From an uncultured bacterium (lineage in GTDB: Bacteria > Chlamydiota > Chlamydiia > Chlamydiales > SM23-39), in contig OY970323.1 of the NCBI GenBank assembly GCA_963716985.1, positions 992,001 through 1,056,000 on the forward strand: 64,000 nucleotides of DNA, read 5' to 3'. Both the position numbers and the translations under genes were made by a program. Every line of letters starts with the position of its first letter. The first letter of the stretch is position 1. This document shows positions 9,833-57,421 of this stretch, piece after piece. Below the pieces are notes generated by a model. That model saw nothing but the letters and a program-made list of their open reading frames with translations. It did not search any database and was not told where the DNA came from.

Positions 9833-10552
9833 TCACTGTTGTTTTTTTGTTTCAAAAGAGATCTCTTCATGGGTTTTTTTCAGCATGAGTATTTGCCAAT
9901 AAGCCCCTTGTTCCTTGAAGGCTTGGGCAATGAAATGGTCAAAGCTTTCTCGCGCTTTCTTTTGTTCCTTTTTTGCGCATTTTTTCAACCCTTGTACCTT
10001 CTCCTCCAATAGAATTTTTTCCTCTTTTGAGAGAGGCGAGATGAGATCCTCCACCACACACAAAGAGTGAAAACTTTTGAGAAGATCAGAGTAAAAAGAT
10101 ACCGATTCCTCTTTGAGCAGCGCTCCCGTTAAGACATAGGCTTTTTTTTGGTAGAGGCAGATAAATTGTAGGATGCGCACCTCGCCGTAGGGGGTTTTGG
10201 AGGTGAGCTCGAGCAGGTGCGAGGGCCCCATCTTGCAGGAAGAGCTTCCCAGATCTCTGATTTGCAAAAGAGGGTCTGTTTGATGGAGTTTTTTCACCGC
10301 CTGCACGTACTCTTTAAGCGAAAGGTCCACTTCTTCGGAGGCAAGATTGAGGGAGGGGCGGAAATAGGGATTTTTTCCGGACCCGAGAAAGCCGATGCAA
10401 ACCGAACTGGAGAGATCTTTTGAAGGGGCGGCGCATTCCCATTTGGGAGGCGGAGAAAAAAGAGCGATCTCTTCCGAAAAAAGAAGGGCCGATAAAAGGG
10501 TGAAAGAGAAACAAAGAAAGCGTGTAGACAAAAGCCTTTTAATCGTCGTCAT
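9833..10552 (-). CDS. Conserved chlamydial hypothetical exported protein
   Basis: ORF with N-terminal hydrophobic segment; lies between tal and the V-ATPase operon; start uncertain. Confidence 0.65.
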   Translation of the reverse strand: MTTIKRLLSTRFLCFSFTLLSALLFSEEIALFSPPPKWECAAPSKDLSSSVCIGFLGSGKNPYFRPSLNLASEEVDLSLKEYVQAVKKLHQTDPLLQIRDLGSSSCKMGPSHLLELTSKTPYGEVRILQFICLYQKKAYVLTGALLKEESVSFYSDLLKSFHSLCVVEDLISPLSKEEKILLEEKVQGLKKCAKKEQKKARESFDHFIAQAFKEQGAYWQILMLKKTHEEISFETKKQQ

Positions 10553-10778
10553 CGCTGTCATGCGCATGGGCTCCGGTGCTAAATTCCAACAGAGCGCAGA
10601 GAAGCCCAATTCCAACAGCTAGGCCAAGGCCCCAGGAGGCCATGGAGAAGGCAAGAGAGTCATAAACACTGCTGTGGGCTGCATGGCCTTTGAGAGGCCT
10701 GTGCGAGGGTTCTTGTGCCCATAACGGGCCTTTCAAACACAAAAGCAGAGCAATTAGCAAAAAAAGACTTTTTTTCAT
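10539..10778 (-). CDS. Small membrane protein (signal peptide, TM helix, His/Asp tail)
   Basis: MKKSLFLLIALLLC signal peptide; WGLGLAVGIGLLCALL TM helix; same layout as 8097..8384. Confidence 0.6.
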   Translation of the reverse strand: MKKSLFLLIALLLCLKGPLWAQEPSHRPLKGHAAHSSVYDSLAFSMASWGLGLAVGIGLLCALLEFSTGAHAHDSDDDD

Positions 10779-11263
10779 CGGATTGACAGCGTGGAAACCC
10801 ATTCCTTTAAAGATGGGAGGAACCGCCGCTCCTTTTGTTTTTAAGTTATCAAAACGGGGGAGTTCTTCCCCATCGCAGTTACCTGCACTCACAGATAAAC
10901 TGCAGGCCTGATCGCTCACGCCTCTTCCTTATCTGGAAGGAGTAGTTGACAATTCACTGCTTGCGCAACTAATTTTCATGGTACACATTAGAAGTTTTTA
11001 TGGAAAGAGGCTATTTTCAGGTCCAAAACCGGTGCAAGAATATCACCGTCGCTTTTGGCGCAAGGAAAAGGGACCTCGTTTGATAAACGGAATTATTTTT
11101 TCAGAATATCTCTTATTTGTTAGACGATTTAGGGCGTTAAATTAAAATTTTTGGTTTCTTTAAGCATTTTTTTAAATCATTTGTAATTCTTTGGCGATAA
11201 GAGACTTGCGCAACTTTGAGAAAAATTTTGCGAAAAAAAAGATGTGTTTTGAAAAGACATGTG

Positions 11264-11272
11264 TGTTATAAA
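11264..11272 (+). promoter_or_regulatory. Putative extended -10 promoter of the V-ATPase operon
   Basis: TGTTATAAA (TGn+TATAAA) about 25 nt upstream of the orphaned RBS AAGGTG and the element junction. Confidence 0.4.
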
Positions 11273-11297
11273 AGCCGTGACGATCTCAAGGTGAAAT

Positions 11298-11555
11298 GTC
11301 ACCACCCCTCCCTGAAGGGAGAGGCCTGAGAGATCAAGCCTGAAGTTGACCAGCCTTAAGTCTTAAGGCAACTTGGGACTATGTTAGGAGCGAATATAAA
11401 TAGGTACCTTGGAATGCCGCCTCAGTTCTAAGCTTTGCGGTTAGCAGTTAAACCAAGCGTATGGGTTAAACCAGTACTGTTAACATGGTAAACCGCTCCA
11501 TAACTTTGGCGAGGGGAACGTTACCCGGGAAACCGGAGATTGCAGGTAACTGCTA
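11298..11555 (+). ncRNA. HEARO / omega-RNA scaffold
   Basis: Hallmark blocks GTTGACCAGCCTTAAG, GACTATGTT, ATAGGTACCTTGGAATGCCGCCTCAGTTC, GTTAAAC, AAACC..CATAACTTTGGCGAGGGGAACGTTACC; 3' boundary approximate. Confidence 0.8.
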
Positions 11556-11648
11556 GGGGGGAGCAATTCCCCGCTTTTAAGTTTAACAATGAAGGAGCAG
11601 CACCTCCTCCCACCCCTAAAGGGATGGGTTTCCGTGCTGTCAAATAAG
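11298..11648 (+). mobile_element. Non-autonomous IS200/IS605 (IscB-type) element carrying only a HEARO/omega-RNA
   Basis: Starts GTCACCACCCCTCCCTGAAGGGAG (end hairpin); second end hairpin CCCACCCCTAAAGGGATGGG at about 11609-11628; flanked 3' by ATGAA; no IscB or TnpA ORF. Confidence 0.8.
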
Positions 11649-12275
11649 ATGAAAGAAATCGAAACGGGAAAAGAGAAGATCCAGAAAATTTGTGACCTTT
11701 TGCGAAAAGAGACGCTTGATCCTGCCAAGCAAGAAGCGCGAGAGATCGTTGAAAATGCCGAAATGCAAGCGAAGCAAATATTGGAAAAGGCCAAAGAAGA
11801 CGCGACCGAACAGCTTCACATAGCCCGAATGGGAATCGAGAAAAAGAAGAAGATGTTTGAGGATTCGCTGCAGTTTTCCGTAAGGCAGTCTCTAGAAGAG
11901 TTGAAACAATCGATTGAAAAGAAATTTTTCCGGGAAAATCTTCAGAAGCTCATTCAAGAAAAGATGGCAGGCCCTAATGTGATTGCCGACCTCATTTCCG
12001 CTATCGTCGAGGCGGTCCGCAAGGAAGGGATCGAAAGCAATCTTTTGGCCTATGTTTCGAAAAAGATAGCTCCGGAAAAAATCATAGCTTTTTTGGGATC
12101 GAATATTATCGACCAGTTGAAGAATAAAGAGCTCGTCTTAGGGGATTTTGAAGGCGGCGTTAGGATTCGTTTGGAGGGGCGCAATATAACGATTGACCTC
12201 ACCGATGAAACTCTTCGAGATCTGCTAGTGGATTATATTCGCGAGGATTTTCGTCATTTGTTCTTTCAGAAGTAG
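11649..12275 (+). CDS. atpE: V-type ATP synthase subunit E
   Basis: MKEIETGKEKIQKICDLLRKETLDPAK, typical chlamydial subunit E; first gene of operon. The ORF-track start at 11589 lies inside the inserted element. Confidence 0.9.
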   Translation: MKEIETGKEKIQKICDLLRKETLDPAKQEAREIVENAEMQAKQILEKAKEDATEQLHIARMGIEKKKKMFEDSLQFSVRQSLEELKQSIEKKFFRENLQKLIQEKMAGPNVIADLISAIVEAVRKEGIESNLLAYVSKKIAPEKIIAFLGSNIIDQLKNKELVLGDFEGGVRIRLEGRNITIDLTDETLRDLLVDYIREDFRHLFFQK

Positions 12276-13060: not shown

Positions 13061-14836
13061 ATGAATGAGACAATAAACGAAGTTGCAGCAACGGGAAAGG
13101 TCGTAAAAGCCTATGGCAACCTTCTCCACGTGGAATTTGAAGGCGAGATACGCCAGGGAGAGCTTTGCGCCATTCGGCTGGGAGATCTTTTTCTTTCCGC
13201 CGAAGTGGTGGAGATTGTCGACCGCATCGCAAAGGTGCAGGTATTTGAGGATACCAGAGGCATTACGCTTGACGGCCCTGTGAAATTTTTAGGAAGGTTG
13301 TTAGAGGCAGAGCTTGGGCCCGGACTCTTAACGTCTATTTTTGATGGCCTGCAAAATCCCTTGGAAAAGGTGGCTGAAAAATCGGGCCTTTTCCTTAAAC
13401 GAGGGATTTCCCTGCCGGCGCTCGATCGGAACATGAAATGGGATTTTGTCCCTTTTGCCAAGGTGGGCGATCTCGTAGTGAGAGGAGATGAAATAGGAGA
13501 GGTCAAAGAGCAGTTTTTTTCTCATAAAATTATGGTTCCCTTTTCTCTTCGGGGGCGCTTGCGCATCACCTGGATCGCTCCCGCCGGATCCTACAGGATC
13601 GAAGAGTTGATTGCCAAGGCGGCAGATGAGACGGGCAAAGAGATGGATATTTGCATGCTTCAGAAATGGCCTGTCAAGATTGCCCTGCAGCAAGGCAAAA
13701 AGGTCAAGCCCGAGCAGATGATGGGAACGGGCCTGAGAATCATCGATACCCAGTTTCCTCTTTTGAAAGGGGGTGCTTTTTGCACTCCGGGCCCTTTTGG
13801 CGCGGGAAAGACCGTGCTGCAACACCATCTTTCCAAGTTTTCCTCTGTGGATATCGTGATCATAGCGGCGTGTGGAGAGAGAGCGGGCGAGGTAGTGGAG
13901 CTTTTGCGGGAATTTCCCCATCTGGTGGACAGCAAAACGAACGAGCCTTTGATGCATCGAACCGTGATCATTTGCAATACTTCTTCCATGCCGGTTTCTG
14001 CAAGAGAAGCCTCTGTTTATATGGCCGTAACGATTGGAGAATATTATCGACAGATGGGGCTTGACGTCCTTGTCCTTGCAGACTCGACCTCTAGATGGGC
14101 GCAGGCAATGCGGGAGATGTCGGGCAGATTGGAAGAAATTCCCGGGGAAGAGGCCTTCCCGGCTTACCTTTCCTCGCGTATTGCAGCTTTCTACGAGAGG
14201 TCGGGTGTGCTGCTTTTAAAAGACCAAAAGGAAGGATCTTTGACCATTGGAGGCAGTGTTTCTCCGGCAGGAGGCAATTTTGAAGAGCCGGTGACGCAGG
14301 CAACTCTTGCAGTGGTGGGTGCTTTCTTGGGGCTTTCTCGCGAGAGGTCCGATGCGAGGCGCTATCCTGCTATCGATCCTTTGATCTCATGGACAAAATA
14401 TCTCTCCCGTGTGGGCGCTCTTTTTGAAAAAAAGAATCCGGGATGGACAAGGAAAATTACCGAGGCCTGGAAGCTTTTGAAGCTAGGAAAAGAGATAGAG
14501 AAGAGGATGGAAGTGGTGGGAGAAGAGGGAATTCCTATAGAAGATATGGTGGTCTATCTAAAGGCAGAGCTCTATGACATTGCCTACCTGCAGCAAAATG
14601 CTTTTGATAAAGAAGATCAATTCTGCCCGATCGAGCGGCAAGTAGACCTTTTTCATCTCATGGATGATATCTTCTCCCGGCCTTTTACATTTGACAGAAA
14701 TGATGAGGCAAGAAGTTATTTTCTTTCGTTGCAAAATGATATTCGTAATATGAATTTTCTTCCTATGCATAGCCCGGAATATGAAAAGACTCTTGCGACG
14801 ATTCGAGAAAAAGTTCGGAAAAGGAAAGAGAAATGA
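13061..14836 (+). CDS. atpA: V-type ATP synthase subunit A
   Basis: P-loop [37 protein letters not shown]. Confidence 0.97.
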
Positions 14837-57203: not shown

Positions 57204-57285
57204 ACATCTTCTCCATTCAGCATGACAGTTTTAATTCGAGCGACCATGCGTTTGTCTCTCTCTTTTTTTGTTGCAATCTCAACTG

Positions 57286-57421
57286 AGCTTAAGAACTGAG
57301 GCGGCATTCCAAGGTGCCCATATATTCGCTCCTAACATAGTCTCTAAATGCGCAAGAGACTTAAGGCTGGTCAACCTCAGGCTTGATCTCTCAAGCATCT
57401 CCCTTGGGAGGGGTGGTTGAC
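57286..57421 (-). ncRNA. Truncated second HEARO/omega-RNA element copy
   Basis: Reverse complement GTCAACCACCCCTCCC..GAGAGATCAAGCCTGAGGTTGACCAGCCTTAAGTC..GACTATGTTAGGAGCGAATATA..ACCTTGGAATGCCGCCTCAGTTCT aligns to 11298-11434. Confidence 0.8.

Follow-up and report, generated by a model that had tools for sequence, protein, structure and literature searches.

We analyzed a 64,000-nucleotide (nt) stretch of chlamydial DNA (contig OY970323.1, positions 992,001 to 1,056,000; hereafter the window) and found that a 351-bp IscB-less mini-element of the ISC/HEARO type, copy c1003, stands precisely between the Shine-Dalgarno box of the host and the start codon of atpE, the gene for subunit E of a V-type ATPase. 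The genome, G000, is a single contig of 2.07 Mb, in which the window corresponds to G000:C1:992001-1056000. Judged by its sequence, the element (11298-11648) belongs, as a non-autonomous member, to the ISC branch of the IS200/IS605 superfamily and has both ends and a complete omegaRNA gene. The account that we regard as probable is that an IscB-less mini of this kind sits at N|ATGAAA, is retained through its guide RNA and an IscB supplied in trans, and carries a ribosome-binding site for the host gene that it has interrupted.

Identity and anatomy of the element

The Rfam model of HEARO RNA (RF02033), which is the omegaRNA of IscB nucleases, matched window positions 11298-11524 on the plus strand with 103.6 bits versus a gathering score of 83 (E = 3.1e-20), and the match spans the whole model (positions 1-211 of 211). 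In the terminal stem of this copy, three of the eight pairs are noncanonical. The boundaries, established by alignment of the G000 copies with their flanks, run from GTCA... (11298) to ...AAATAAG (11648), with the ATG at 11649 directly next; similarity among the G000 HEARO copies starts with GTCA(A)C and ends with ...GCGCTGTCAAATAGG, right before ATGA. No iscB or tnpA gene was found inside 11298-11648 in the list of open reading frames (ORFs) or by a whole-genome Pfam search, in which the RRXRR and Y1_Tnp matches mapped elsewhere, and an IscB ORF (RRXRR-RuvC-HNH) is also absent directly 3' of the c1003 scaffold. The ORFs of at least 40 amino acids (aa) that touch the element are the 5' part of 11589-12275, an in-frame extension of atpE, and minus-strand ORFs of 40-104 aa. 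As in other ISC and IS200/IS605 elements, there are subterminal hairpins (11310-11319 and 11609-11628), no terminal inverted repeats, and no target-site duplication. Downstream of the scaffold, the minis share one order of parts: two small hairpins, a GC-rich hairpin with a T-run, AACAA-AAGGAG, a bipartite hairpin, 8-9 nt, and the host ATG. In full-length copies, the 5' end of iscB stands where the minis have the terminator-like hairpin.

The initial annotation of this DNA had already called a HEARO/omegaRNA element at 11298-11648 that lacked IscB and TnpA ORFs, placed its end hairpins where we find them, and pointed to the extended -10 box at 11264-11272. Its proposed geometry, with the guide 5' of the scaffold and the target-adjacent motif (TAM) on the opposite flank, matches that described by Meers et al. 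(10.1101/2023.03.14.532601) in the available part of that text, where RF02033 is also said to lack downstream structural elements. The element as such thus stood up to analysis, and what had been missed were its own terminator-like hairpin, its Shine-Dalgarno box, and a second mini-element nearby. The features of the locus are listed below, G001 being the one same-genus genome compared.

11264..11272, plus strand: host promoter candidate with an extended -10 box, TGTTATAAA (from sequence; putative function)
11279..11297, plus strand: host 5' leader and predicted guide of about 19 nt, homologous to the G001 leader ...cttaagaggaaat directly before ATG
11288-11294, plus strand: original host Shine-Dalgarno box, AAGGTGA, within the leader
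11298..11648, plus strand: IscB-less ISC/HEARO mini-element, copy c1003, 351 bp (alignment of copies and empty site in G001)
11298..11524, plus strand: omegaRNA scaffold (Rfam HEARO, 103.6 bits), including the near-end hairpin CCCTGAAGGG at 11310-11319
11525..11555, plus strand: 3' part of the scaffold beyond the Rfam model, with two small hairpins, CCGGGAAACCGG and GCAGGTAACTGC (common to mini and full-length copies; folded)
11556..11582, plus strand: terminator-like hairpin GGGGGGAGCAATTCCCC followed by GCTTTTAAGT (terminator scan)
11592..11597, plus strand: element-borne Shine-Dalgarno box, AAGGAG (GGAG or GAGG in 29 of 32 ATGA-proximal ends)
11597..11640, plus strand: bipartite hairpin of the ATGA-proximal end, with outer stem G-CAGCAC/GTGCTG-T and inner stem-loop CCCACCCC-TAAA-GGGATGGG (RNAalifold, centroid fold)
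11614-11623, plus strand: far-end loop hairpin CCCTAAAGGG (sequence)
11641..11648, plus strand: terminal spacer CAAATAAG, from the hairpin to the host ATG (the other copies have the consensus CAAATAGG)
11649..12275, plus strand: atpE, V-type ATPase subunit E, 208 aa (weak Pfam match to HrpE / V-ATPase E)

The empty allele and the start of atpE

The atpE site of G001 is empty and reads ...gatgtggtataaatggcagtgttcttaagaggaaat|ATGAAAGAAATCGAAAC (in short form, ...AAGAGGAAAT|ATGAAAGAAATC), and the occupied site of G000 reads ...catgtgtgttataaaagccgtgacgatctcaaggtgaaat|351 bp|ATGAAAGAAATCGAAAC. Since the flanks of the two genomes align in this way, the insertion falls precisely in the gap that separates the host Shine-Dalgarno box from the start codon, without target duplication; the insertion point and the empty junction that had been predicted from G000 alone were thus found to exist. 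All three loci examined in G001 (atpE, rpsF, and a methyltransferase gene) are empty, and at each of them the host Shine-Dalgarno box stands directly before ATGAAA with no duplicated bases. We considered whether ATGAAA could be part of the element and rejected this, because the empty sites keep it. At atpE, the same ATGAAA is the start codon, the transposon target, and the putative TAM.

Upstream of the insertion, the extended -10 box is kept as TGGTATAAA at the same place before atpE in G001. It was not called by a simple promoter scan, because the scan requires a -35 box. The predicted guide is taken to start at 11279, 7 nt past the -10 box, which is a guess.

The protein encoded by atpE is 72% identical to its G001 orthologue over residues 1-208, and the operon continues 3' of it with a DUF2764 gene, an A-like gene (591 aa), and a B-like gene (433 aa). 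At 23 of the 29 relatives' loci, the aligned N terminus opens with an ATG at the position of 11649 (mostly MKGLETGKDKIQ-like). These alignments indicated that ATG 11649 is the true start of atpE. The upstream ATG at 11589 was tried as a start and rejected, given the N termini of the relatives and the other copies of the element, which read TAAAGG where c1003 reads TGAAGG. This substitution, peculiar to c1003 (window 11589-11648, plus strand), makes an ATG in frame with atpE and hence a 228-aa ORF. The ORF is probably a false extension of atpE, and an annotation pipeline could wrongly choose it over the conserved protein of 208 aa.

Sister copies, IscB, and TnpA in the genome

Eleven HEARO matches were found in G000, and nine exceed the cut-off. 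An intact 442-aa IscB gene follows the scaffold in two copies (element lengths, 1628 and 1632 bp), and seven are IscB-less minis of 346-429 bp with both ends; two HEARO fragments, at C1:21236 and C1:1049235, have no ATGA-proximal end. A motif search yielded four further ATGA-proximal ends without a detectable scaffold match, which brings the ends to 13 in all. The IscB ORFs start 45-46 nt past the Rfam match and contain no internal stops. They match the RRXRR family of Pfam with 237 and 234 bits and IscB sequences of the PDB with E values from 5e-39 to 6e-25, and both presumably carry the IDPG, HNH (EIDH), and HWIDA motifs, which we picked out by eye. Identity between the scaffold of c1003 and the two IscB-linked scaffolds is 94.3% and 91.6%, and the mini copies are 83-93% identical to one another. 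Two copies, c35 and c389, form a subfamily only 55-65% identical to the others, with no cognate iscB in G000.

Y1 tnpA is represented in G000 by two identical Pfam matches at 113.8 bits and by one frameshifted copy. The intact copies directly follow an ORF for a reverse transcriptase/maturase of the group II intron type (L012, G000:C1:755916-759272; L013, G000:C1:1968577-1971933), and the boundaries of the tnpA element could not be set, both copies lying inside a longer repeat that includes this ORF. No Rfam group II intron match at gathering level was obtained near the tnpA copies; from its position, the tnpA gene may be intron interrupted. A transfer-messenger RNA gene (153.6 bits) was also noticed about 560 bp downstream of one tnpA copy (L012 2464-2829, minus strand). 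These data established that further copies, iscB, and tnpA are all present elsewhere in the genome, the three things for which the initial annotation had proposed a search, and the bias of the flanks toward ATGAA and start codons that it had proposed to tabulate was seen as well.

Insertion next to start codons

ATGA follows each of the 13 ATGA-proximal ends in G000, in 10 cases as ATGAAA. At eleven ends, the adjoining ATG begins an ORF of 79-742 aa, and the genes concerned include those for ribosomal protein S6 (rpsF), a FliH/SctL-type protein, adenylate kinase, a YbbR-like protein, and a methyltransferase; the start of the adenylate kinase gene is uncertain, as its conserved core begins 23 codons further in. 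The remaining ends lie about 4 nt before a tRNA-Glu gene and before a 28-aa ORF only, respectively. G000 contains 7252 ATGAA sites, 18% of which open an ORF of at least 115 aa, versus eight of the nine copies found first (binomial P of about 8e-6 relative to all ATGAA sites). When ATGAA sites outside called genes served as the null, 23% of which are starts, the same eight of nine gave a P of about 6e-5, with gene calls that are a rough longest-ORF set rather than the output of a gene finder.

HEARO was detected in 7 of the 41 genomes searched, G000 included. Among the 11 copies of relatives with a readable far end, 7 directly adjoin a start codon, whereas the next start codon is 7-25 nt downstream in 3 and about 110 nt downstream in 1; at one further locus, L077, the boundary could not be placed. 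The genes behind the abutting copies include some that we take, from their N-terminal sequences, to be nusA-, SdhB-, and Pit-like. Two of the three copies at 7-25 nt belong to an ATAAA-flanked subfamily. This second HEARO subfamily (L076 in G018 and L078 in G023) is flanked by GG|ATAAA and lies 9-25 nt upstream of start codons. One of its copies precedes what is presumably an S18-like gene, and a purine-rich AGAGAGG was seen at the very end of one copy.

A public collection of 596 Gb, with one genome per species, was then scanned with a 17-nt end motif. The scan reported 118 stretches, of which 80 were examined; about 70 chance matches are estimated for a scan of this size, and most stretches are of that kind. 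Twenty of the 80 contain genuine ends, as told by an upstream stem or hairpin, and 16 of these are new and 4 repeat loci already covered here. For 15 of the new ends a judgment was possible; 8 of them adjoin ORFs of 145 aa or more, and 1 is ATAA flanked. Some of the ORFs behind the new ends have N termini that we take to be DXS- and RpoC-like. A combined table was made of 32 ends, leaving out three whose upstream part is lost at a contig end, and 30 of the 32 are followed by ATGA, the exceptions being AAGA and ATAA. Taken together, these sequence contexts argue for a start-codon rule that is strong, not absolute.

A bias toward one replication strand was considered and dropped: 9 of the 13 insertions are in head-on genes, as would be expected if the lagging-strand template is the target, but with a P of 0.13 against a genome without gene-strand bias (50%).

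A conserved Shine-Dalgarno box, hairpin, and terminator-like hairpin

The ATGA-proximal end of the element carries its own Shine-Dalgarno box. In most copies it reads AAAGGAG, which is complementary to the 3' end of the 16S rRNA (...CACCTCCTTT), and GGAG or GAGG is located just 5' of the outer stem in 29 of the 32 ends. The three ends that have lost it have no gene behind them (Fisher P = 0.007), and these three are not independent, because two come from one genome. Compensatory pairs were seen among 19 copies in the outer stem, which is 7 bp long (RNAalifold), and in one relative this stem is spelled CGAGGC/GCCTCG and still pairs. In the centroid fold of the leader, the hairpin is formed and both the Shine-Dalgarno box and the AUG are unpaired. 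A 16S-complementary box, a stable hairpin, and an 8-nt spacer are thus all present, as in a hairpin-bridged ribosome-binding site. In the split ribosome-binding sites of phage T4 genes 38 and 25, a hairpin brings a distant Shine-Dalgarno box to the AUG, and c1003 shows the same succession of AAGGAG, a stable hairpin of about 43 nt, 8-9 nt, and AUG, a resemblance in sequence only. The arrangement suggests that the box of the element serves the translation of atpE, with the hairpin bridging to the AUG. Host genes behind insertions have intact frames, which holds for rpsF and for genes that, from their N-terminal sequences, we take to be nusA-, rpsR-, and rpoC-like.

The reading frame of IscB across this end differs between genera. 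In the full-length copies of another genus (G013; L070 and L074), it ends at the TGA of the host ATGA, and it runs otherwise in those of G000 (see below). The GGAG stays although the frames differ, and therefore the motif is not conserved as protein sequence. With the four-base overlap of stop and start in G013, translation of the host gene could also be coupled to that of iscB.

The terminator scan called a GC-rich hairpin with a T-run behind it in all four minis that it covered (c1003, c35, c1669, and x1002), and the stems of the last three differ in sequence from that of c1003. In other genera, the stem of the terminator-like hairpin has a different sequence and the pairing is kept. No sigma-70-like promoter was found inside the elements by a crude consensus scan of three of them, and an internal promoter driving atpE was rejected on the result of this crude scan. 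Copy c35 is preceded by a TTGATT-17-TATAAT promoter whose end is 22 nt from the element, and the predicted leader or guide would therefore be about 16 nt long.

A second element and relics nearby

The intergenic region upstream of atpE contains a second, divergently oriented element:

10779..10950, minus strand: second mini-element x1002, 172 bp, internally deleted (motif search, alignment to c1003)
10539..10778, minus strand: 79-aa ORF, MKKSLFLLIALLLCL..., signal-peptide-like, divergent from atpE, whose ATGAAA abuts x1002

From the positions of c1003 and x1002, one divergent intergenic region thus holds two elements, each on the start codon of its own gene. What x1002 keeps is the 5' scaffold stem, the 3' scaffold end, the terminator-like hairpin (10871-10857 in the terminator scan), AAGGAG, and the hairpin of the ATGA-proximal end. 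The 79-aa ORF (10539-10778, minus strand) has no Pfam family.

Three relics with only a terminator, a Shine-Dalgarno box, and a hairpin stand before ORFs in G000 (x558, x748, and x1002). In G001, where no HEARO match was obtained, one locus (L088, G001:C7:12452-15535; contig 13952-14035) holds a degenerate relic with the 3' scaffold end, the terminator-like hairpin, AAGGAG, and the end hairpin, directly before an ORF starting with ATGTTC. Within the window, a degenerate 5' HEARO scaffold fragment is located at 57235-57421 on the minus strand (the fragment at C1:1049235); its score of 38 bits does not reach the cut-off, its first bases are GTCAACCACCCC, and no ATGA-proximal end could be recognized. 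The omegaRNA-side terminus (GTCAAT...CCTAAAG...) also occurs without a HEARO match at G000:C1:650840-650868 and 235585-235613, both on the minus strand. To judge from their sequences, these two ends may belong to other elements with the same terminus.

Proposed working and alternative explanations

The observations at atpE can be assembled as follows. The element inserted without target duplication immediately 5' of ATGAAA, which is the N|ATGA target of the family (TTCAT in the complementary strand) and here encodes the Met-Lys start of atpE, and it thereby parted the Shine-Dalgarno box of the operon from its start codon. A host promoter some 20-25 nt upstream would transcribe leader and scaffold into an omegaRNA with the atpE leader as its 5' guide, and the terminator-like hairpin would end part of these transcripts. 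A resident IscB could load the omegaRNA in trans and, after excision by TnpA, for which the predicted junction is GGTGAAAT|ATGAAAG, cut the empty allele, which consists of the leader and the ATGAAA TAM. No target other than the empty allele would be available, since GTCACC, not ATGAAA, comes after the leader in the occupied allele. ATGAAA fits NWRRNA, the TAM quoted for OgeuIscB, and it would be the TAM of the resident IscB if, as Meers et al. describe, the TAM equals the TnpA target. Recombination with a sister copy would restore the element, as shown for other IscB/TnpB elements. Read-through transcripts would reach AAGGAG, the hairpin would place this box at a folded distance of about 8-9 nt from the AUG, and atpE would still be translated.

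A number of observations weigh against this account, and several of them fit other explanations. One such explanation is that c1003 is a fixed relic, neither mobile nor guide competent, which is kept because translation of atpE depends on its Shine-Dalgarno box and hairpin while the omegaRNA part decays. Of the nine copies that exceed the cut-off, this one has the lowest HEARO score, and a 1-nt deletion affects its terminal stem and cleavage motif (GTCACC for GTCAAC), defects that could, to judge from the sequence, impair both guide function and excision. The tnpA genes also look compromised: the intact ORFs have no in-frame ATG before the conserved N-terminal motif, and the end hairpins of the HEARO elements were not seen in the flanks of the resident tnpA copies. 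On this evidence, present mobility of the HEARO minis is doubtful. The divergence of the minis from one another speaks against a recent burst, and truncated relics with terminator, Shine-Dalgarno box, and hairpin persist before ORFs. However, the scaffold of c1003 matches the whole model above the gathering score and shares 94% identity with a scaffold linked to IscB, neither IscB gene is disrupted, and the terminator hairpin, which is useful only for a discrete RNA, is kept across genera with different stems. We consider a fixed relic unlikely, though it is the alternative to be taken most seriously.

The proposed retention and rescue must also be set against the view that c1003 is a tolerated, mildly harmful polar insertion at its target, which lowers V-ATPase expression by way of its terminator and the displacement of the Shine-Dalgarno box, and that AAGGAG and the hairpin are nothing but transposon end and C-terminal coding sequence of IscB. 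In the full-length G000 copies, the IscB frame does run through AAGGAG and stops at a TAA in the hairpin loop. A hairpin with covariation is by itself no proof of RNA function, because it is expected of a transposon end bound by TnpA. The organism may not even need a Shine-Dalgarno box, the core of which stands upstream of 33% of called genes versus 10.6% of random positions. Furthermore, the target rule alone puts many insertions at Met-Lys starts, given that 372 of the 1697 called genes start with ATGAA (first-ATG calls), and landing on a start codon is not universal: ORFs of at least 79 aa are abutted by 25 of the 32 combined ends, 6 of the 15 new scan ends, all in two many-copy genomes, abut ORFs of 3-45 aa, and some copies of other genomes lie away from gene starts. 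Against this view, starts are overrepresented even among ATGAA sites outside genes (8 of 9 observed versus 23% expected), insertions stand before rpsF and nusA-, rpsR-, and rpoC-like genes with intact frames, the GGAG is retained in genera whose IscB frames differ, and it is lost only in copies with no gene behind them. We hold a harmful, tolerated insertion to be quite improbable. The terminator-like hairpin, which sits between the host promoter and the host gene in all four minis scanned and with no internal promoter in the scans, poses a difficulty of its own, since enough transcription would have to get past it to express rpsF, nusA, and atpE. It could be read as part of a regulator in which IscB binding or the fold of the scaffold sets passage through the terminator and ties expression of the host gene to the element. 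Yet the host genes are of unrelated function, and the need to end a guide RNA fully explains the layout, so that we give regulation of this kind hardly any weight.

Comparison with known systems

The articles compared here were available in part, and the statements below refer to those parts. ISC elements with a 5'-GTCA end were reported to target N|ATGA (Kapitonov, Makarova and Koonin 2016, PMC4810608). ISC1-1_MA of Microcystis aeruginosa shares with c1003 the 5'-GTCA terminus, insertion exactly 5' of ATGA, the lack of target duplication, and subterminal hairpins (PMC4810608). As in the ISC transposons described there, full-length copies in G000 (1628 and 1632 bp) encode IscB, and a Y1 transposase is predicted to act in trans; c1003 differs from them in that it has lost iscB and is 351 bp long. 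The available text of Kapitonov 2016 mentions no gene-start bias and no Shine-Dalgarno box or terminator within the element, and the term "start codon" does not occur in it.

Standalone omegaRNAs work with IscB supplied in trans (Hirano et al. 2022, PMC9581776, citing Altae-Tran 2021). They resemble the case described here in the full-length model match, in a guide 5' of the scaffold and outside the element, and in an IscB encoded elsewhere. In contrast to them, c1003 carries, where the 5' region of iscB would be, a terminator-like hairpin of its own, and it lies between both transposon ends, inside the 5' untranslated region of a host operon.

For related systems, Meers et al. (10.1101/2023.03.14.532601) describe the guide as the flank 5' of the scaffold and the scaffold-side end as the right end (RE), and they state that transcription has to start outside the element, in host DNA. 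Common to their systems and to c1003 are a scaffold derived from the RE, a guide (predicted for c1003) outside the boundary, a putative need for transcription from host DNA, a TAM (putative for c1003) that equals the TnpA target, and the existence of protein-free palindrome-associated transposable elements (PATEs) with the ends of coding elements. In the part available, their PATEs are characterized only by common ends and a lack of genes, and they report an orientation bias relative to upstream genes but neither landing on start codons nor replacement of a ribosome-binding site.

IStrons, which combine IS605 or IS607 elements with group I introns (PMC13565253), follow the same logic, i.e., the cost of sitting in an expressed gene is limited while a guide RNA arises. 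IStrons splice, whereas c1003 does not, and its would-be rescue consists of read-through and a carried Shine-Dalgarno box. The available text of this 2026 review contains neither "start codon" nor "ATGA." In the literature covered, from which Altae-Tran 2021, Weinberg 2009, and the supplements were left out, we found no account, in the parts of the texts available, of start-codon landing or a carried Shine-Dalgarno box for IscB/HEARO elements. The class of element, its N|ATGA target, standalone omegaRNAs, PATEs, and the dependence on host transcription are already in print. New at the atpE locus are a self-terminated, IscB-less omegaRNA mini in an operon leader, two back-to-back elements, the conserved Shine-Dalgarno box with its hairpin, and the relics.

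Implications

A wider reading, which we put forward tentatively and with somewhat less than even confidence, is that an IscB/HEARO lineage of environmental chlamydiae and some other bacteria has specialized in start codons as safe, transcribed sites, with ATGA(A), a Met-Lys/Asn start, as both target and TAM. Its minis would be complete, self-terminated guide-RNA genes and its end a portable, hairpin-bridged ribosome-binding site; one transcript would give both a guide directed at the empty allele and an mRNA. After insertion the host gene would rely on the Shine-Dalgarno box of the element, so that relics would be kept as domesticated leaders even where IscB is gone.

In practical terms, the minis are compact, putatively self-terminated omegaRNA genes with two IscB nucleases as natural partners, and they offer a ready system for the study of omegaRNAs acting in trans. 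If the account given here is true, an RNA-guided transposon has to meet two demands, host transcription for its guide and the sparing of the host gene, and parking at a start codon together with a replacement ribosome-binding site would serve both of them. The leader of an operon, be it for the V-ATPase, ribosomal proteins, or nusA, would then double as a guide RNA, a natural case of this kind, and the ends of transposons would have a route by which to become translation signals of their host.

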